Positions 19,905-28,903 of a stretch of DNA of 64,000 nt are shown here, one piece after another. This DNA comes from a virus (lineage: Duplodnaviria > Heunggongvirae > Uroviricota > Caudoviricetes). The stretch lies in the IMG/VR virus record IMGVR_UViG_3300020429_000539, positions 268,263 through 332,262 of that record. One strand, given 5' to 3'. Within the stretch, counting starts at the first letter, position 1; every line of letters begins with the position of its first letter. Both the position numbers and the translations under genes were made by a program. Below the pieces are notes generated by a model that worked only from the letters and a program-made list of their open reading frames with translations, ran no database searches and had not been told where the DNA came from.

Positions 19905-22900
19905 ATGGGTTTTACGAAACGAGCATCAAGCACTGGTCGCCCCCTTCATCTAGAGGCACTTAACGTACCTCAGGGTAAAGAGTGGGACTTGATCAACAAG
20001 GATTCGCTAATCAAGACTGCTTCATTGTCGAAAGACAAAGCTGTCGATTTGAATGGTTTTAATCTTGAAGCCGCTATCAAAGAAAGCCCAGACCATCTTT
20101 TTGTTAAGGTTTTTGCAATCAAACAAGATGAGGTCAACGATAATGGCGATGCATTTTCTGCTAGCGAGCTTAAGAAGGCTACAAGCACGTTTATTGGTTG
20201 TCCAGTATTCGTTAACCATCAGAATGATGATGTTGAAAAAGCTCGCGGCATGGTCGTCCACGCATGGTTCGACGATGAAGCCGGTGGTATCTACTGTATC
20301 AACAAGGTAGATAAGACAGCCTATCCTCAGCTTGCTCGCGGTATCGAAGAGGGTTACATTATAGGAACATCGATGGGCGCTCAGGTCGGTCATTCGGTGT
20401 GTTCAATCTGTCACAATAAGGCTCACACTGCTGACGAGTTCTGTACACATATCAGAAATCAGAAGACTCGTAAGTTTCAGATGAGGGCTCATGATTGTAA
20501 ATACCACGAGAGCGCTGGCAAGCCCAGCGATGATTGCCCTGTGTGCGGTTGCCGTCCCGGAGAGAAGCGAGCTAACGCTACCGAGGGCCTCAAGGTCTTT
20601 GAGTGGAACTATGATATCAACTTTATTGAAGATAGCTTTGTTGTAAACCCAGCATGTCACGATTGCTTGGTTTGCGATATCCTAAATGTTCCTGCTATTG
20701 AGAGTCGTCTTGCATCGAAAGTTGCTGAGCTAGAGAAGCTTGCATCTTCATACGAAGAGGGAATGTCTTCGGGCAAGATGGAAAAAGTTGCAGGTAATAT
20801 GGAAGTTCAGGCCCTAAACGATGCGATGAACCTTATTGAAAAGGTTACTCGTTCGATTATGGCGCAGAAACAACAGATTGATATGGAATACGCGAGTGAC
20901 CTCATCGAGGTTCTTGCAAATATTCAAAGCACGACTGACGAACTCATCGAAATGGGTTACAGTCAACTTCCCTCGCCCTCGGAGAGCGAGGTTATGTTTG
21001 GTTCCAATACTTCTGCTTCGCCTGTTGAGGACACAGGAGCGACTCAGGTTGATGACCCCAATATGCTTGGCGCTCAGCAACCTGCTGCTCCGACACAGCC
21101 AGGTGGGGTAGAAACCGGAAACTATGGAAATCAAATTGGTACAGTTACCCGTCCAACGTTTTCCTCCAATAATTCCAGTTCTAGGGAGGAATTTTTGAAG
21201 AGAGCGGAGAACATTATAGAGAATCTAGACAGATTGCGCTCTATCGTTGTCGATCAGGAGCAGCAGGAAGTTGCGGGTATGAGTTCGAAAGAAAACAATA
21301 AGGAGTCAAGTTCTATGGCTAAGCCTAAAGATAATGAGACCAAGACTGCGGCGGGTCAGGGTGTTACGCCAGAACAGGCAGAGGTCATCACTCAGAAGCA
21401 GTTTGATTCTGCCGACCTTCCTTTGCATGGTCGTCAGGAAGACCACTATAATACGATTACGGAAGGTGATGAGCAGATTGGTGGTTCTGAAAGAGTAAAC
21501 GACACTACAACAGCCTCGCCACAAGTTCGCCTTGACAACCCCTACGAGTTTATTACACAGGCTCAGTTGGCGGAAATTCAGGACGGATATATCGTTCGTT
21601 GGGAGTCATACCCAGAGGTAGTTACTGAAAAGCAGTGGGACGAGATTAGCCGAGAGGTTAGCGGTCGTCTTCCTGAGGACTACACGGAAGAAATTACGCA
21701 GGCTCAGCTAAGAAGCTTGCTTTCGACACACCGTTGGGAAGACCCAGCAGTTATTACGCAACAGCAGCTTGCTGACCAGGGCTCCACCATGCCGCACGGT
21801 GGAGATACTTCGCGATGGAAGGCTGCTTATACATTTGACCCCAAGGCTCTTGTTAAGTCTGCTACGAACGCCGTAGCTGACGCTATTGCTAATTACGGTC
21901 TATCTCCAAGCGATATTCAGAAATCTATCGTTGCTATGACGATTACGCCACAGTCTCATATGAAGGCAGCCTACTTGACTCTTGTCAACGCTTTGCCTCA
22001 GAAGATTGAAGACCGTGCTGCTGCTCGTAACCGTAACGCATACTTCAGCCGTGTAGCTGGTTCAAAAACAAACGACAAGCCAATCAACGGTTTCCTCGGT
22101 GCGCTTGCTGATAACATCGGCTATGCAAAGGCTGAGGACTTTATTGATGCTGTAAAGTTTGTTGTAAACGATAAAAACGTATTTGCTTCTGCTGAGCAGC
22201 TTGCTCACAAGAAGCTCGCTTCTGCATCGACGCCTGAAGAGATTCTCGATAAGAATGCCCGCTTCGCTGAGGCTTTCTCCGAGCTTTATGTAGACAAAAA
22301 TGACGGTATCTACAAGCTTTGTGGAACCATTAGGGATGACCTAGAAGGCGCTGATCCACAAGATCAGCCAGTCTTTTTGGAAACTGTTGTAGCGTATTCG
22401 GAGAAGACGGTTGGCAAGCCAATCATTCTCGCCTCGCTTGATATCGATGAAGAGAACAAGACTTTCGAGGCTATTGTTAAGGAAGAGTCTGTTGCTTCTG
22501 ATGAAGAGATGAAGGCTTTTGCTTCGCTCAAGAAGAACAACTTCAAGTCTGCTGAGCATCAGTTTGGCGGTCCTGAGGAAGAGGACTGGGATGAGCAAGG
22601 CGCAGAGAATGCAGCCGATGAAGCCGCCCGCAAAGCAGAGGAAGACGAGAAGCAGCAGCGAGCCGCTTCGCGTAACAAGAAAATGGAGAGAGCCGCTCAA
22701 ATGATGGGCGGACAGATGCCAACAGGACTCGGCGATGGTATGGGTGGCGGCGCTTCGCTTCCAACCCCGCCTGATGCTGCTGGCGCTCAGCCTGGTCTTG
22801 AGAGCATGGATAACGGCGGCATGATGGAGGGCGAGTCTGATTTTGCAGACGGCGACCTTGACCCTGCCCCTCCCGGCTCGAAGTGCCCTGTCTGTGGTTC

Positions 22901-25577
22901 TGAAGATGTTGATATTATGGGCGGACAGGGCAAGTGTAACAACTGTGGCTCTGAGTTCGTCTTCAAGGTTGACATCGAAGTTACCAAGTGGGCGGACCTC
23001 ACCCCTGATGAAGAGGGCGGAGACGACATGGAGGGCGAAGGTTTCGCAGTCGATGATGAGGCTGGCTTCGAAGAGGATATTCCTGTCGCGGCATTTACTC
23101 GCATTACTGACAAGGCTCTCAAGAAGATTGCTGAGTCTGGGACCAAGCTTGGTTCGGTCAGCCCCTACAACGGAACGACCAATACGGTTCGAGTTTCTGA
23201 TAACGAATACCACTGTCTCAGCACTGGCCGTCGTTATTCTATCGCGCAGGCTATGAAGGGCGATGATTGGTACATGCAGTGGACATGGACACCGCCTGTT
23301 GTTGATAGTTGTCCGACTTGCCGTCGCTTGAAGAAAACATTTGCAAGCGCTCTTGAGCAGTTTGGCATGAACGACAAGGAGTTTGAGTCACTGTCCCTTG
23401 AGGACCGTGGTAAAGTCATCATCTCGATGAACAACAAGGGTCTCTTGAACCGCGTCAAGACCGCAAGCAATCAATCGGTATTGGCTGATTTCAAGAAAAC
23501 TGCTTCTCTTGGTGTTGGCGTTGATTTCCCTGTAGAGAACTGCCGCGAGCTTCTTGCTCGTCGTTTCGGCGAGAACGCGATTGCTCTCAGCGGTCCCGAT
23601 GAGGGAGAGAACCTTGTAAACTCTGTATGCAAGCGTCTTGCTAAGGCAAACATCTACAGCGATAAGATTGCTGTCAAGGTTGCAGAGATATGGTCCGAGC
23701 CGGATGCATGTATCGAATGTCTCGAAGATTTCATTCGTAGCGGATTCTCCGCTAAGCAGGCGTCGTTTGTTTGCGACCAACTCAAGACCAAGTATGCTCA
23801 GGTTGTTGAAATGCTTGCAGACGAAATTGAGTCTGACCCATTTGATGATATCGCTCCTGAAGGCGACATGGGCGGAGGATTGGATGATGTTGTCGAGGAC
23901 GTAACTAGCGTGTTCGATGATGTTGACCCGTTCTCACCTGGCGCTGAAGATGCCGGTGTTGTCCAAGTAGAGATTCCTCTTGATGTTCTAGAGAACTTTG
24001 ATGAGGCAATCGACAAGGCTCTTGGTGAAGACCCTGCCCTTGAGGAGCATCACGATGAGCGAGAGCTACCCGAGGGCGAAGCGGAGATTTCGCTTCCAAC
24101 CGACGCAGTAGACGCTATTGATGAAGTTGCGGACGATGCTCTTGACTCTGCTATTGAGGAAGAGCCCGCAACTGAGGAACCCATCGGCGACGACGACAAT
24201 GGTGACGACGACGATGGTGACGACGATGGACCCGATGGTGGCGGCGCTCCTACAAGCGAGATGGGCTACCCCGATGGTAAGGAAGAGGAAGATGGCACTC
24301 AAGTAGTTGAGGGCATGGATTCCGAGCCAAAAGCACCAGGAATGGGGGCCTATGCGAAAAATTCTCAGGGGATTAAGAAGGAATCTTCACAGGAAGTTTT
24401 GAATCCCATACAAGAGGAAACTCAGGAGCAAGTTATGCGTAACTCAGATGCTTTCAAGCGAGGCAAAATTAGCAAGTCCCACAAGGTTACTCTTGACTTG
24501 AACGCTGTTCAGTCATTGCTTGCTAAGCATGCCGGCGAAAGCACAGTGAAGCAGGTAAACGTGCAAGACAAGCCTGAGATTGAGCCCATTTCTAATGTAG
24601 GCAAGTCACAGATGGGCCATGAAGAGAAGCTTTCTCTCGAAGACCCAACAGCCCCTTCAGTAGGAACTGGCGCAACTATGGGCAAGGAGCCCAACGACAT
24701 TGTTCCAACTGATTCGCCAACTGTTCCTCATGGCAGCGGCGAGATGGGTCACGAGTCAGAACAAGGCTACACTTCCGAGGGTGGCAATGAGATGACTGGT
24801 GGAGATAAAGGTGCTGGTAACTCGAAGGCTGCCAAGCTTGATAAGCAAACAGTAAAAACAAGCGGTATGGTCAATGACCTTGCTAACCGCATCATCAAGA
24901 GTGCCGAAAAGGTAAACGAGGCTAAGCCAGTTGCGGACGATGAGGACGTTGCTCCTATCTCCAAGAACGAGGACCATCCTCATACACCTGAAGGCAGCAA
25001 GATAAAGCCATTTGAGTCGTCTGACCATGCTGAAACGGACAGCGTTCCAGAGGCAGGCTCCGGCGCTTACATGGGTCACGAAGAGGAGAGCATTGGCGCT
25101 GTGCCCAAGGCACCCGAGCATCAGCCTGATATCCCATCTGGCGGTGGCTCCAATGCTAACTATGATAAGAATGACAAGTATTCTCCTGAAAAGCAGGAGA
25201 ACATCAAAGGCACGGTCATCGCTGGTGGCGATGAGGAGTCTTTGGCAACCCGCAGGGCCGAAGCTATCAAGGTAGCGGCTCGTATGCTCCAAGCTCAGAT
25301 GATCAAGGCGGACGCTATGCCCGCTAAGGTTGCTGAACTAGAGCGCTACGAGGTTCCGCAAATCCAAGACTTCGAAAGAGCTATGTTTGGGGTTGTCGAG
25401 AAGGGACTCGACACCGTGGCGCGGGGGACAGAAAAGCCCCTGGTTATCTCGGAAAGCAGCAACAGACGGGATGCCGGTATGGAGCTAACTGCTCAAATCC
25501 AGAGCCTCTTTAGGCTCGACGGCGAGAACCGCCTTGCTGCTGAAGATGAGATTGCCCAAATGAGGCGTCTACGGTAA
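19905..25577 (+). CDS. Prohead protease-scaffold fusion protein (1890 aa)
   Basis: N-terminal assemblin/HK97-type protease-like domain (NDNGDAF, PVFVNHQ, GTSMG, EDSFVVNPA) with Cys/His Zn-binding insertions. ITQxQ repeats, a CPVC..CNNC ribbon and a long acidic C-terminus. Upstream of the cement and capsid genes. Confidence 0.8.
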   Translation: MGFTKRASSTGRPLHLEALNVPQGKEWDLINKDSLIKTASLSKDKAVDLNGFNLEAAIKESPDHLFVKVFAIKQDEVNDNGDAFSASELKKATSTFIGCPVFVNHQNDDVEKARGMVVHAWFDDEAGGIYCINKVDKTAYPQLARGIEEGYIIGTSMGAQVGHSVCSICHNKAHTADEFCTHIRNQKTRKFQMRAHDCKYHESAGKPSDDCPVCGCRPGEKRANATEGLKVFEWNYDINFIEDSFVVNPACHDCLVCDILNVPAIESRLASKVAELEKLASSYEEGMSSGKMEKVAGNMEVQALNDAMNLIEKVTRSIMAQKQQIDMEYASDLIEVLANIQSTTDELIEMGYSQLPSPSESEVMFGSNTSASPVEDTGATQVDDPNMLGAQQPAAPTQPGGVETGNYGNQIGTVTRPTFSSNNSSSREEFLKRAENIIENLDRLRSIVVDQEQQEVAGMSSKENNKESSSMAKPKDNETKTAAGQGVTPEQAEVITQKQFDSADLPLHGRQEDHYNTITEGDEQIGGSERVNDTTTASPQVRLDNPYEFITQAQLAEIQDGYIVRWESYPEVVTEKQWDEISREVSGRLPEDYTEEITQAQLRSLLSTHRWEDPAVITQQQLADQGSTMPHGGDTSRWKAAYTFDPKALVKSATNAVADAIANYGLSPSDIQKSIVAMTITPQSHMKAAYLTLVNALPQKIEDRAAARNRNAYFSRVAGSKTNDKPINGFLGALADNIGYAKAEDFIDAVKFVVNDKNVFASAEQLAHKKLASASTPEEILDKNARFAEAFSELYVDKNDGIYKLCGTIRDDLEGADPQDQPVFLETVVAYSEKTVGKPIILASLDIDEENKTFEAIVKEESVASDEEMKAFASLKKNNFKSAEHQFGGPEEEDWDEQGAENAADEAARKAEEDEKQQRAASRNKKMERAAQMMGGQMPTGLGDGMGGGASLPTPPDAAGAQPGLESMDNGGMMEGESDFADGDLDPAPPGSKCPVCGSEDVDIMGGQGKCNNCGSEFVFKVDIEVTKWADLTPDEEGGDDMEGEGFAVDDEAGFEEDIPVAAFTRITDKALKKIAESGTKLGSVSPYNGTTNTVRVSDNEYHCLSTGRRYSIAQAMKGDDWYMQWTWTPPVVDSCPTCRRLKKTFASALEQFGMNDKEFESLSLEDRGKVIISMNNKGLLNRVKTASNQSVLADFKKTASLGVGVDFPVENCRELLARRFGENAIALSGPDEGENLVNSVCKRLAKANIYSDKIAVKVAEIWSEPDACIECLEDFIRSGFSAKQASFVCDQLKTKYAQVVEMLADEIESDPFDDIAPEGDMGGGLDDVVEDVTSVFDDVDPFSPGAEDAGVVQVEIPLDVLENFDEAIDKALGEDPALEEHHDERELPEGEAEISLPTDAVDAIDEVADDALDSAIEEEPATEEPIGDDDNGDDDDGDDDGPDGGGAPTSEMGYPDGKEEEDGTQVVEGMDSEPKAPGMGAYAKNSQGIKKESSQEVLNPIQEETQEQVMRNSDAFKRGKISKSHKVTLDLNAVQSLLAKHAGESTVKQVNVQDKPEIEPISNVGKSQMGHEEKLSLEDPTAPSVGTGATMGKEPNDIVPTDSPTVPHGSGEMGHESEQGYTSEGGNEMTGGDKGAGNSKAAKLDKQTVKTSGMVNDLANRIIKSAEKVNEAKPVADDEDVAPISKNEDHPHTPEGSKIKPFESSDHAETDSVPEAGSGAYMGHEEESIGAVPKAPEHQPDIPSGGGSNANYDKNDKYSPEKQENIKGTVIAGGDEESLATRRAEAIKVAARMLQAQMIKADAMPAKVAELERYEVPQIQDFERAMFGVVEKGLDTVARGTEKPLVISESSNRRDAGMELTAQIQSLFRLDGENRLAAEDEIAQMRRLR

Positions 25578-26246: not shown

Positions 26247-27131
26247 ATGGCTTACACCAAAAACAACCTTTCTGATGAGCAGAAGGAAATGATCATTGCA
26301 CAGGCTCTTGAGACTGAGGAGGGTCGCACGGCTCTCGCTCAGGCCATGGTCGAGCCTATCCGTCGTTCGCTTGAGTACCAGGCTGTTGGTCGCAAGCTTC
26401 TCATGGTTGATGAGTTGCCTCAGGGCGCTCTCGCTCGCTACGAGCGTGACCTCGCAGCCATTGCGCACGTTGTTGCCCGTCGCGGCGCTGTTCCTGACCA
26501 GATTCAGGAAGGCGAGGAAATCCTCGTTCCCACTTGGGAAATCGCCGCTAACCCAACGATTCGCCTTTCCGAGATCAAGGCTCGCCGTTTCTACATCGTA
26601 GACCGCGCGCAGATCAAGGCTAAGGAAGCAATCCAGAAGGAAGAGGACACCCAGATTTTCAACGCTCTCATTGCTGCTGCCGACAACCGTGCGGCTGCTG
26701 GCTCTGCTCAGATCGTTACAGACATGGGCTCGCTCTCGACCACTGCTCTTAACAGCGCATTCCGCTACATCGAGCAGCATGACCTCGTGGCAACTAAGAT
26801 TGTTGTCCACGCTAACCGCTACGCAGATATCCGTACCTTTGGTAAGGACTTCTACGATGAGGCAACCGTTCGTGAAATCCTCACGACTGGTCTCTACGGC
26901 CACCTTTGGACCGCAGACATCCACGTTTCCTCGCGTATGCCAACCAACACCGTTCTCGTTGTTGCTTCGCCCGACACTGTTGGCGCGTTCCCAATCCGCC
27001 AGGACATTACCGTCCTGCCCGCAGACGACCCCAAGAAGCTCCGCCTCGGCTGGGTTATCTACGAGGAAGTCGGCATTGCGGTCATCAACGATTACGCAAT
27101 CTCGAAGATTGAGGTCTCTGAGGCCAGCTAA
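26247..27131 (+). CDS. Major capsid protein (HK97 fold, encapsulin-like size)
   Basis: TAAGGAG RBS. LAQAMVEPIRRSLEYQAVGRKLLMVDELPQG, AIQKEED, GWVIYEEVGIAVIN. Strong codon bias, followed by a terminator hairpin. Confidence 0.9.
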   Translation: MAYTKNNLSDEQKEMIIAQALETEEGRTALAQAMVEPIRRSLEYQAVGRKLLMVDELPQGALARYERDLAAIAHVVARRGAVPDQIQEGEEILVPTWEIAANPTIRLSEIKARRFYIVDRAQIKAKEAIQKEEDTQIFNALIAAADNRAAAGSAQIVTDMGSLSTTALNSAFRYIEQHDLVATKIVVHANRYADIRTFGKDFYDEATVREILTTGLYGHLWTADIHVSSRMPTNTVLVVASPDTVGAFPIRQDITVLPADDPKKLRLGWVIYEEVGIAVINDYAISKIEVSEAS

Positions 27132-27169
27132 TCTCTTAGCTGAAATCTTCTAGCCTCTAAAGCTTCTAT

Positions 27170-27205
27170 GAAGGGCGGGTCCATTGGGCTCGCCCTTCTC
27201 TATTT
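27170..27205 (+). terminator. Rho-independent terminator after the capsid gene
   Basis: GAAGGGCGGGTCC-ATT-GGGCTCGCCCTTC hairpin followed by TCTATTT. Confidence 0.75.
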
Positions 27206-27216
27206 AAGTCCATTTT

Positions 27217-27223
27217 GCCGATA
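27217..27223 (+). promoter_or_regulatory. Class-B promoter-like motif GCCGATA
   Basis: GNCGATA also occurs at 28889, 44491, 46118, 53741 and 56678, at or next to gene boundaries. Confidence 0.5.
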
Positions 27224-27294
27224 GAATAGAGTGACTGAATAGAGTTCAAAACTGTCCTAGTCGATGAAGAAGAGGCGCATGCCAAGGAGATACA

Positions 27295-27717
27295 ATGGAA
27301 TTTGAGATTACTTATCGTGAGCTAGCTGAAATGTCTACGAGCCTGAACAGGTTGGTGCAGGTTAATATGCCCGCGAAGTATGCATTTCGTTTGCAGAAAA
27401 CCATGAAAACTCTTCAGCAAGAGTTAAAAGATTTGAACGAGCATAAAGAAACACTTATCAAGAAGTATGGCGAAGAAGTAGATAACGAAAAAGGTCGCAG
27501 CATACAGGTTAAGACCGAGCATGCTGAAACTTTCTGGAATGAATGGAACGAGATTCTTGAAGATACCATTACGATTACGGCTAATCCAATTCCGCTAAGT
27601 CTCATCGAAGATTCAGAGGTTACTATTGCAGATATGGCTTTGCTAGAGCGATTTATAGATGATGATTTATCTAATGATTCAGAGCCGGTGAAAGAAGTTA
27701 CTGAAACTGCAAGCTAA
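27295..27717 (+). CDS. DUF1617-like phage protein
   Basis: AAGGAG RBS. LNRLVQVNMPAKYAFRLQKTMKTL...ETLIKKYG pattern. Confidence 0.6.
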   Translation: MEFEITYRELAEMSTSLNRLVQVNMPAKYAFRLQKTMKTLQQELKDLNEHKETLIKKYGEEVDNEKGRSIQVKTEHAETFWNEWNEILEDTITITANPIPLSLIEDSEVTIADMALLERFIDDDLSNDSEPVKEVTETAS

Positions 27718-27756
27718 AGCGAAAGGTATTTGAACTCATGACCTTGAATATGTAGG

Positions 27757-28156
27757 TGAGCCTTTTATTCAAGGGGTCTTTCGATGATATTATTCGAGAG
27801 CGAGTCCTATAGCTTTTGCAAGGCTAACTCAAATAAAACAAAAGATACCCTGACCCTTGAGCATGCTGTGCGTGCAGTAACGTTTAATAGGGAAAGGCCT
27901 GTCTATGCGCGATGCATGATTTTATGCAGTCGCGCCTGTTCCATAAGGAGGTTTTAAACTATGTATAGAACAAATATTACATTGCGGTCAGACTTGGAGA
28001 AGCTAAATGGCAATGGAGATTGCCAGATTCTCTAATCTGATCCGAACCCTGCCTGGGAACAGGCGCGCCGCCTTCGGGCGGCGAGGTACACGGGGTCTCG
28101 ACGGCGAGGCCAACATTGTTGGTAAGAGGGTTCGACTCCCTAGCCCGTGTCTTTTT
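27757..28156 (+). ncRNA. Putative structured RNA with 3' tRNA-like module
   Basis: Preceded by AAGG-N19-GAA (27723-27748). At least 10 hairpins, including GGAA and UUCG tetraloops. A 12-bp long-range helix, a T-arm AGGG-TTCGACT-CCCT, and a terminal T-run. Confidence 0.6.
27961..28035 (+). CDS. 24-aa small ORF inside the structured RNA
   Basis: TAAGGAGG at 27944-27951, ATG 27961, MYRTNITLRSDLEKLNGNGDCQIL, then TAA. Confidence 0.5.
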   Translation: MYRTNITLRSDLEKLNGNGDCQIL

Positions 28157-28170
28157 ATCTGGAGAACACT

Positions 28171-28836
28171 ATGCAAGAAATCAAGAGTCCTTCGTTTAGC
28201 GTCATAGCAAAGAAATCGCCTGCCTGGCAAAGAGAGGAAGGCAAAAGCGATAAAGGTGGCCTCAATGAGAAAGGTCGCAAGTCTTACGAACGCGAAAATC
28301 CAGGAAGCGACCTAAAAGCTCCTGTTACAGAAGACAAGCCTAAAGGCGAGCGCAAGAAGCGACAAGATTCGTATTGCGCTCGAAGCAAAGGGCAGATGGA
28401 CGACCATAATATCAACTGTTCAGAAGAACCAGATAAGCCTATCTGCAAGTCACGCCGTCGTTGGAACTGCTCTAGCAAAGAGTTGTCTGGTCTGCTCAGG
28501 GTAATGAAGAGCGAGTCTTATCTGAAGGTTGCAGAGGACGAGCTAGCAGATGCTTGCTGGGAAGGCTACGAGGCTGTTGGAACTAAAATGAAGGACGGTA
28601 AGGAAGTCCCTAACTGTGTTCCAAAGGGTAAGAAGAAAAAGAAAGCTTCTTTCTCGGTCTTGCCCGACATTGATAGGGATCGTCATCCTGAGAGGGCGGG
28701 ACTTGAGGGTCCGTTTAGGCAGCCGAGTGGTCATGTTCTTTACTATGACCCAAAAGAGGGTAAGTATTACGACGCTTCACGAGATATGTATATCGAAGCA
28801 GATGAATACGAGGCCATGCAGCGACCTCGTTCATGA
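28171..28836 (+). CDS. Modular head-associated protein (DUF6321-like plus two small phage modules)
   Basis: GGAG RBS. SPAWQREEGK..GGLNEKGRKSY...SYCARSKG...RRRWNC, then CWEGYEAVGTKMKDGKEVPNCVP, then GLEGPF...VLYYDPKEGKYYD. Confidence 0.7.
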   Translation: MQEIKSPSFSVIAKKSPAWQREEGKSDKGGLNEKGRKSYERENPGSDLKAPVTEDKPKGERKKRQDSYCARSKGQMDDHNINCSEEPDKPICKSRRRWNCSSKELSGLLRVMKSESYLKVAEDELADACWEGYEAVGTKMKDGKEVPNCVPKGKKKKKASFSVLPDIDRDRHPERAGLEGPFRQPSGHVLYYDPKEGKYYDASRDMYIEADEYEAMQRPRS

Positions 28837-28856: not shown

Positions 28857-28886
28857 CAACACGGCCCTTGTGCCGTGTTGTTTTTT
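28857..28886 (+). terminator. Rho-independent terminator
   Basis: CAACACGGC-CCTTGT-GCCGTGTTG followed by TTTTTT. Confidence 0.88.
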
Positions 28887-28903
28887 AAGCCGATATGCTT
28901 TGT

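Follow-up and report, generated by a model that had tools for sequence, protein, structure and literature searches.

A covarying RNA element with a short reading frame and an anticodon-less tRNA mimic in the head module of one branch of jumbo phages

In tmRNA, the tRNA-like domain carries the G3-U70 alanine identity pair, and the tag reading frame has no start of its own and lies between the halves of this domain, with the acceptor piece located upstream in permuted genes. The C4 antisense RNA of phages has a tRNA-like fold and is encoded beside small ORFs, and its conserved loops are complementary to nearby targets. The substrates of RNase P include phage RNAs other than tRNAs, C4 among them (PMC11143913), and Y RNAs, which are tRNA mimics (PMC4201824); some jumbo phages encode Ro60 (PMC7824862). 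The mascRNA and menRNA of MALAT1 and MEN-beta are vertebrate nuclear RNAs with demonstrated processing by RNase P, RNase Z and CCA addition (PMC11693755), and the t-elements of plant mitochondria are tRNA-like units at mRNA ends that act as cut signals for RNase P or Z (PMC1920247). Here, we describe a phage locus in which a short reading frame is followed by two hairpins and, in most copies, by an anticodon-less tRNA mimic; it is a real RNA family of one jumbo-phage branch, and apparently an undescribed one.

The window, i.e., the whole 64,000-nt stretch of DNA that was analysed, belongs to a complete virus genome of 488,051 bases with direct terminal repeats, and the phage is a relative of Bacillus phage G of jumbo-phage size (488 kb). 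In this genome (G000) the element occupies positions ~296019-296418 on the plus strand, and its features and neighbours are listed in Table 1. Directly upstream of the capsid genes, the window encodes a 1890-aa protein with a head-maturation-protease-like N terminus (19905-25577), and at two related loci large ORFs resembling mobile endonuclease genes are inserted right after the capsid gene (L004:6002-7642 and L006:6021-7010). The gene downstream of the element has a modular make-up: the window has the DUF6321 domain, L008 and L103 lack it, and in the non-carriers L005, L102, L108 and L113 the C-terminal domain alone occupies the spot. A GYCGATA motif precedes many structural genes (at 27217-27223 and 28889-28895 in the window, and also in L001, L002, L003, L005 and L102) and is a candidate late promoter, with 191 occurrences in the genome versus 112 in shuffles, 24 of the former outside ORFs.

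Table 1. Features of the element and its surroundings, in window coordinates
Feature	Position	Strand	Remarks
Major capsid protein gene	26247..27131	+	phrog_2522, E 5e-67; 54% identity to gp27 of Bacillus phage G
140-aa gene, unassigned function	27295..27717	+	phrog_1401; directly 5' of the element site in carriers and non-carriers alike
Candidate promoter	27722..27749	+	AGGTA(A/T)T-N13-15-(G/T)AAT type
AAGG-N19-GAA	27723-27748
5' region	27757..27930	+	only in three close copies (74-77% identity); weak overall fold
Paired motifs of the 5' region	GCCTTT 27760/AAAGGC 27893; TCAAGGG 27769/CCCTTGA 27854; TCTTT 27777/AAAGA 27841
ORF1, 57 codons	27784..27957	+	predicted; RBS 27771-27776; overlooked in the initial annotation
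Covarying hairpin within the 5' region	27864-27879	+	pairs kept through changes in 3/3
Local hairpin GCGCGA..TCGCGC	27907..27935	+	competes for the 5' strand of the long helix
5' arm of the long-range helix (12 bp) plus RBS	27931..27953	+	RBS (27945-27951) pairs with the anti-Shine-Dalgarno stretch downstream
ORF2, 24 codons	27961..28035	+	predicted; RBS AAGGAGG 27945-27951
Long hairpin in the 3' half of ORF2	27990..28038	+	stop codon buried; 35/36 cells paired in two homologs
GAAC(C/U)C motif (AAACCC in L007)	28044..28049	+	able to pair with RBS or T arm
Hairpin 1	28051..28064	+	5-bp stem, invariant G-GGAA-C; 3/5 pairs with two-sided change, 100% paired
3' arm of the 12-bp helix	28056-28067
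Hairpin 2	28066..28083	+	UUCG loop in the window; one base after hairpin 1; 3/7 pairs with two-sided change, 100% paired
tRNA mimic	28088..28150	+	acceptor 28088-28094/28144-28150
D arm of the mimic	28096-28109		GG in the loop
Arm at the anticodon position	28110-28122		5 bp, 3-nt loop
T arm of the mimic	28127-28141
U-rich trailer	28151..28156	+	no encoded CCA; as in own tRNA genes (29/62 TTT, 0/62 CCA)
DUF6321-domain gene	28171..28836	+	own RBS; directly 3' of the element; glycosyltransferase gene further downstream
Terminator-like hairpin after the DUF6321 gene	28857-28880

The initial annotation had proposed a structured RNA of about 400 nt with a two-state switch and a tRNA-like 3' end, and every motif that it named was found again at the same position; the mutual exclusivity of its helices follows directly from the coordinates, because the arms of the 12-bp helix overlap the local hairpins. 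The 400 nt also fold at -150 kcal/mol, better than any of 100 shuffles (z -5.82), and the homologs fold over their whole length modestly better than shuffles (z -1.7 to -2.5). The proposed 5' multibranch domain did not hold up: region 27757-27930 alone yields a z of -0.91, with 39 of 200 shuffles as good, and is confined to the close copies, and the proposed pairing is compatible with both close homologs, yet is not the consensus fold. The upstream AAGG-N19-GAA string cannot alone mark a promoter, because it is common in the genome (126 occurrences versus 64 in shuffles). The candidate promoter at this site has a strict pattern found three times in the genome (twice outside ORFs) versus 0.9 times in shuffles, and a slightly looser form is present in four of the seven copies described below; no sigma-70 promoter was found. 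At the other end, the T-run (28152-28156) resembles the trailer that is usual for the phage's own tRNA genes (29 of 62 with TTT, against a background of 6.6%), and is a normal tRNA-gene trailer, not necessarily a terminator.

No known family had been recognised in the initial annotation, and a covariance search with Rfam agreed, with no match at the gathering score in the window. A search of positions 27100-28300 at E values up to 10 returned no GOLLD, ROOL, OLE or mascRNA/menRNA match, and none was obtained over the element in four homolog loci; the best weak match was tRNA-Sec on 28088-28150, with 22 bits (cut-off 47) and an E value of 0.15. ARAGORN at default reported neither a tRNA nor a tmRNA in the window.

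To place the element among related phages, loci were collected via the capsid protein (80 kept of 115), two flanking proteins and one metagenome scan (12 loci) that was guided by the neighbouring protein, not by the RNA element. The element is present at the same syntenic site in seven distinct phages, with copies of whole length in the window, L008 (84% identical) and L103 and the 3' part only in L001, L002, L003 and L007, and it is absent from this site in L005, L102, L108, L111 and L113. In a midpoint-rooted glycosyltransferase tree, from which a fragment (L113) and two duplicates (L109 and L112) were left out, the seven carriers lie on one side of a 95/95 branch versus four non-carriers; among the carriers, L002 and L003 stand apart from the remaining five, among which L007 and L001 are sisters. 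Model R1, run over 90 sources, returned the seven known copies and one tRNA-Trp, with no further members, and model R2, run over 50 of the viral records behind the loci, returned five known copies and four weak matches, namely two tRNA(CAU) genes, one tRNA-Cys and, from a tRNA interrupted by an ORF, the 3' half; run on the phage's own genome, R2 detected no copy besides the known one. Pattern scans, which require exact matches and can miss distant members, gave 3, 19 and 29 stretches in viral contigs and 37 in bacterial genomes, with only the known copies above 24 bits, and no match better than an E value of 3 was obtained among annotated phages. The reach of the element is narrow, i.e., one branch of uncultured jumbo phages.

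The order of the conserved core is RBS, ORF, AAC(C/U)C, hairpin 1, one purine and hairpin 2, followed by the tRNA-shaped domain in six of the seven copies. The two hairpins, one base apart and with an invariant loop, are the only structure common to all seven, in which the GGAA loop and AAC(C/U)C are likewise invariant. Sixteen of 34 core pairs change on both sides while 93.3% of cells pair in five aligned copies, a level that none of 500 shuffles reaches and that compares with three pairs at most in slid controls; the alignment was fitted to the structure and has five rows from three lineages, the window's own row not included, so that the count errs on the high side. For hairpin 1 and the T stem, the changes can be read directly from the aligned sequences. 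Furthermore, the module is 92-98% identical among the close copies versus 82-84% for the flanking gene. The seven copies and their compensatory changes bear out the proposal of a phage RNA element that includes a small ORF and a tRNA mimic, and show it to be conserved and covarying.

A G-rich RBS followed by an ATG-started ORF of 24-32 codons, corresponding to the predicted ORF2 of the window, is present in all seven copies, and the distance from its stop codon to AAC(C/U)C is 7-8 nt in four copies, 18 nt in two and 3 nt in L008, where one extra base shifts the frame. The seven ORF2 peptides are unrelated across lineages, have no hydrophobic run and match nothing in Pfam or PHROG. ORF1 has equivalents of 44 codons in L008 and 53 codons in L103, but no homologue or atlas match was found for it, nor does it align to a 54-codon ORF of L001. 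Codon-position bias in ORF1 and ORF2 is weak, with approximately 4-5 synonymous to 2-5 non-synonymous codon changes, compared to 42-47 synonymous and 14-17 non-synonymous changes in the flanking gene. The long hairpin in ORF2 shows one two-sided change, and a similar stem is present in L001 and L007. Judged by sequence, the conserved trait of ORF2 looks to be translation as such and not the peptide.

The long-range helix of the window is unusual: a perfect helix of at least 12 bp with arms at least 30 nt apart was obtained in 20 of 5000 dinucleotide shuffles, and the phage's own genome contains one in 7 of 1220 tiles of 400 nt, the element's tile counted. It extends by pairing of the RBS with AACCC and the 5' strand of hairpin 1, and the resulting duplex (-31.8 kcal/mol) is matched by none of 301 other RBS windows. 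The corresponding numbers of equally strong windows are 0 for L008, 0 for L103, 4 for L007, 11 for L001, 242 for L002 and 246 for L003; the duplex is thus strong in four of the seven copies, marginal in L001 and missing from L002 and L003. No covariation is seen in the 12-bp helix, whose sequence does not differ among the three close copies, and the 3' partner of the duplex is nearly invariant, with no compensatory change; it is the local GGAA hairpin, not the 12-bp helix, that covaries in all copies. Ensemble folding, which considers secondary structure without tertiary contacts, predicts the RBS-buried state as the majority in the window, L008 and L007; in folds with the initiation region kept unpaired, the occupancy of hairpin 1 rises from 0.23 to 0.97 in the window, from 0.36 to 1.00 in L008 and from 0.00 to 0.95 in L007. 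Without a ribosome, hairpin 1 is already at 0.99 in L103 and at 0.81 in L001, and it is likewise retained in L002 and L003. A third state is predicted in L008 and L103, in which the motif pairs with the T arm and the mimic unfolds; once a ribosome covers the stop region, the predicted T stem rises from 0.42 to 0.64 in L008 and from 0.00 to 0.89 in L103, whereas this pairing is at 0.00 in the window, L002 and L003 and slight (0.05) in L001. Because both partners of the T-arm pairing are invariant, it cannot show covariation. Of the two-state switch in the initial annotation, a translation-coupled fold is therefore predicted for the window, but the switch is not part of the conserved core, and no equivalent was found in L002 and L003; on these models it is plausible in one sub-branch and does not define the element.

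The tRNA-shaped domain has the acceptor stem, the GG of the D loop and a T arm with UUC(G/A)A of a canonical tRNA, with two adjacent mismatches where acceptor and T stem meet in the three close copies that include the window. A canonical tRNA was rejected, as a 7-nt anticodon loop on a 5-bp stem is replaced by a 3-4-nt loop in all six mimics, on an arm of 4-6 bp that is free in sequence. All five pairs of this anticodon-less arm show compensatory change, and all four arms have been rebuilt in the same way. The acceptor pairs C3-G70, G4-C69 and G5-C68 are invariant in 6/6 mimics, and a C3-G4-G5 start is found in just 6 of 183 distinct tRNAs, three of which are tRNA(CAU); position 73 and the 1:72 pair are variable. 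Since the arm at the anticodon position varies with its 3-4-nt loop while the D-loop GG, the T loop and C3-G4-G5 stay, the shape has been kept and decoding has been lost. In L002 and L003, ~26-28 nt of the mimic (acceptor and D arm) match an intact tRNA(CAU) of the non-carrier phage G050, with scores of 45-47 versus a mean of 15 (sd 3.7) over 183 distinct tRNAs; this tRNA adjoins a second, conventional CAU tRNA. The 5' halves of the window and L001 mimics have diverged beyond recognition (best scores 20-26), but two of the four weak matches of model R2 are likewise tRNA(CAU) genes. By sequence, the mimic can be traced to the phage initiator-type tRNA(CAU) family, where we take the acceptor to be initiator-like from features of tRNA-fMet. 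Two intact CAU tRNAs of this type are encoded elsewhere by the window's phage, so the mimic is a supernumerary copy without an anticodon. In L007, an intrinsic-terminator hairpin with a U-run lies exactly at the mimic's place, and this swap is a single event in one nested lineage.

The genome has ~60-70 tRNA genes by ARAGORN at a lowered threshold (62 at default with the T arm located), and a tandem CAU pair, one conventional and one divergent, is found in G000 and G050 (G000:C1 388-552 and L220:1454-1820, minus strand). An atypical tRNA-like unit lies in the tRNA clusters at G000:C1 177030-177098 (plus), further T arms of such units were located near 176998 (plus) and at 85432, 84314, 80669, 78973 and 76709 (minus), and one unit has a UUCG hairpin in place of the anticodon arm. 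Two tRNA genes with a CUA anticodon (G000:C1 40480-40552 and 46542-46618, minus) are possible amber suppressors. At L145:787-1613, a tRNA gene is split by a 266-aa ORF, possibly a homing endonuclease as we presume from a motif, and its 3' half was missed by ARAGORN.

With respect to expression, four RNA runs of one marine study contain the phage, and three of the four have no contig over the element. One RNA-library contig, at least 99% alike, spans 27846-28230 and so includes the ORF, the mimic, the T-run and the start of the next gene; such contigs give neither strand, ends nor level, and may stem from carried-over DNA. Unless it comes from such DNA, this contig implies RNA that is uncut or reads through at the mimic and the T-run, a point against the cleavage proposed below.

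We tentatively favour, at somewhat less than even confidence and on modelled structures, a reading in which the tRNA-shaped part is an RNase P-type 3'-end signal on a small upstream RNA that consists of a short ORF with a strong RBS and two hairpins. Host RNase P would cut at ~28088/28089, before the acceptor stem, which would give the upstream RNA a 3' end at hairpins 1 and 2 and free a 63-75-nt mimic incapable of decoding. In the window's sub-branch, AACCC and hairpin 1 would double as an anti-Shine-Dalgarno: in the untranslated RNA the predicted fold hides the RBS, and hairpin 1 would re-form once a ribosome occupies the start site. The anticodon-less, varying arm, the tRNA-type trailer and the exchange with a terminator fit a 3'-end signal, and a terminator in place of the mimic in L007 is as expected if both make a 3' end. 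However, no cut is needed to stop the transcript, because in L001, L002 and L003 the mimic is closely followed by a terminator, and a pure shape signal leaves the invariance of the initiator-like acceptor unexplained. That invariance, and the rarity of the C3-G4-G5 start, argue for the main rival, which is compatible with a 3'-end signal and which we regard as possible if on balance doubtful: the released mimic would be the product, an uncharged, anticodon-less initiator-tRNA decoy made with the capsid genes that soaks up host enzymes or defence toxins reading the initiator acceptor or the tRNA elbow, with the ORF and hairpins timing or gating its release. Intact CAU tRNAs elsewhere in the phage make the mimic dispensable for decoding, pairing of GAAC(C/U) with the T arm would, in the folding predictions, keep the mimic of L008 and L103 unfolded as long as no ribosome occupies the stop region, and the sole copy without a mimic (L007) has the first base of this motif changed. 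This same copy speaks against a decoy, as it lost the mimic and kept the ORF and both hairpins; in addition, position 73 and the 1:72 pair vary, and the T-arm pairing is nil or slight in the window, L001, L002 and L003. The two readings could be united in a ribosome-gated device, in which translation of a dummy ORF would flip the anti-Shine-Dalgarno/anti-T-arm stretch and so control the RNase P release of an initiator-tRNA decoy during capsid synthesis; we consider this rather unlikely, but if true, the phage could use it against tRNA-targeting host defences or to steer initiation.

It is unlikely that the locus is simply a tRNA gene in decay that came to lie downstream of one or two small ORFs, with the hairpins as ordinary 3'-UTR stabilisers and the long helix as an incidental inverted repeat. 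The abundance of tRNA genes and the several odd tRNA-like units in this genome, the four sister phages without the element and the lack of covariation in the 12-bp helix are consistent with such decay, but the compensatory rebuilding of all four arms, including 5/5 pairs of the anticodon-less arm, the better conservation of the module compared to the neighbouring gene and the invariance of the GGAA loop and AAC(C/U)C in 7/7 copies are not. Alternatively, hairpins 1 and 2, which may resemble the HK022 put site, could be a protein- or polymerase-binding site of the antitermination or packaging type with the mimic secondary. The hairpin pair with its invariant loop being the only structure kept in 7/7 copies, and a terminator lying downstream in every copy, would suit this, but the terminator and the downstream gene, preceded by a recurring GYCGATA, are shared by non-carriers, Rfam gave no match and no candidate protein travels with the element, which leaves the idea decidedly unlikely. 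Nothing points to a prohead-associated RNA, another option of the initial annotation, and regulation of the downstream gene is unlikely as a general role, as L001, L002, L003 and L007 have a terminator after the element and no DUF6321 gene. We give very little credence to a Y RNA-like partner of the phage's own Ro60, a TROVE/Ro60 gene being encoded at G000 484520-485461 (minus strand) and Y RNAs being RNase P-cut tRNA mimics (PMC4201824): this gene is ~188 kb away on the other strand, GNCGAAN0-1G is absent from 6/7 copies, the D arm precedes the T arm, a different tRNA-like gene lies <1 kb from Ro60, and a non-carrier phage also has Ro60. A two-piece or rearranged tmRNA variant is barely credible; a tRNA-like domain without an anticodon is combined with a short ORF whose stop lies in a hairpin, but C3-G70 is found in 6/6 mimics, the ORF has its own RBS and ATG outside the domain, no tag-like C terminus is present, ARAGORN found no tmRNA in the window, and the phage encodes a separate one-piece tmRNA (G000:C1 50171-50520, minus). 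The suggested tmRNA- or GOLLD-like membership is set aside on the same evidence, i.e., the absence of G3-U70, the ORF's own RBS and ATG, and the lack of any ARAGORN, Rfam or GOLLD covariance match. Taken together, the 3'-end signal remains our preferred reading, and the element is a small, testable case of the roles of phage tRNA-like genes besides decoding, from a class that ARAGORN and Rfam overlook.

Several other known systems were compared and rejected. In a retron, the msr-msd RNA is closed by pairing of inverted repeats and lies next to a reverse transcriptase gene, and no RVT_1 match was obtained in the complete genome (control positive in 3 of 14). A type I toxin mRNA with fold-back inhibition encodes a conserved hydrophobic peptide, and the ORF2 peptides, which have no Pfam or PHROG match, are neither conserved nor hydrophobic. 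A Y RNA of the YrlA type is expected within ~4 kb of Ro60 on the same strand, whereas the distance here is ~188 kb and the strands are opposite; GNCGAAN0-1G, expected near the 5' end, was found in one of seven copies, there inside ORF2, and is lacking in the window; and the expected arm order of T arm, closed acceptor hairpin and D arm contrasts with acceptor, D, short arm, T and acceptor in the element. As a separate observation, a tRNA-like gene with a long structured insert lies <1 kb upstream of the Ro60 gene (G000:C1 ~486150-486340, minus; L147:8150-8385), without an Rfam match at E up to 0.5, and is a candidate Y RNA-type partner; in G050, a tRNA whose anticodon arm is enlarged by a 69-nt insert lies near the Ro60 gene and overlaps a weak YrlA match.

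We found no phage or bacterial element of such a layout described in the literature, and four hairpin-1 strings are absent from six supplementary files of a catalogue of viral candidate RNAs (PMC10690425), whose files 1, 2 and 4, not among these six, could hold the family. The copies display a history in which a tRNA gene was recruited behind a short ORF, the anticodon was removed, the arms were kept, and one lineage swapped in a terminator. The phage initiator-type tRNA(CAU) genes of G050, G025 and G040 share the acceptor, the D arm (in L002 and L003) and the T arm with the mimic, but they belong to tRNA clusters and have retained the 7-nt CAU loop, in place of which the mimic, a solitary unit of the head module, has a loop of 3-4 nt. 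Both tmRNA and the element combine a tRNA-like domain with a short ORF; the element differs by C3-G70 in place of G3-U70, by an ORF outside the tRNA-like domain with its own RBS, and by the absence of a tag. YrlA (Rfam RF02553) is an anticodon-less tRNA mimic of bacteria and phages (PMC4201824), and the window's phage encodes Ro60, but the element carries an RBS and an ORF and is not circularly permuted. The C4 antisense RNA of phages P1 and P7 is an RNase P substrate (PMC11143913) and, like the element, a phage RNA with a tRNA-like fold beside small ORFs; the D and short-arm loops of the mimic change even between close copies, in contrast to the recognition loops of antisense RNAs, and no Rfam C4 match was found. 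A tRNA-shaped unit with a compact anticodon arm at the end of a longer RNA, as in mascRNA and t-elements, is what the predicted fold and covariation indicate here, in a comparison of how the RNAs work and not of lineage, and tRNA-shaped cut signals are already known from vertebrate long RNAs and plant mitochondria. The t-elements share a tRNA-like unit with a T arm, but belong to an organelle system for which the available part of PMC1920247 does not describe the conserved hairpin pair, the ORF spacing or the anti-Shine-Dalgarno switch. With mascRNA and menRNA, as described in PMC11693755, the element shares a compact mimic that ends a longer RNA, with a 7-bp acceptor, a small D arm with GG, an arm with a compact loop and a normal T arm; it differs in being a phage RNA with predicted processing, in which the mimic, visibly derived from tRNA(CAU), stands behind a translated-looking ORF and two hairpins.
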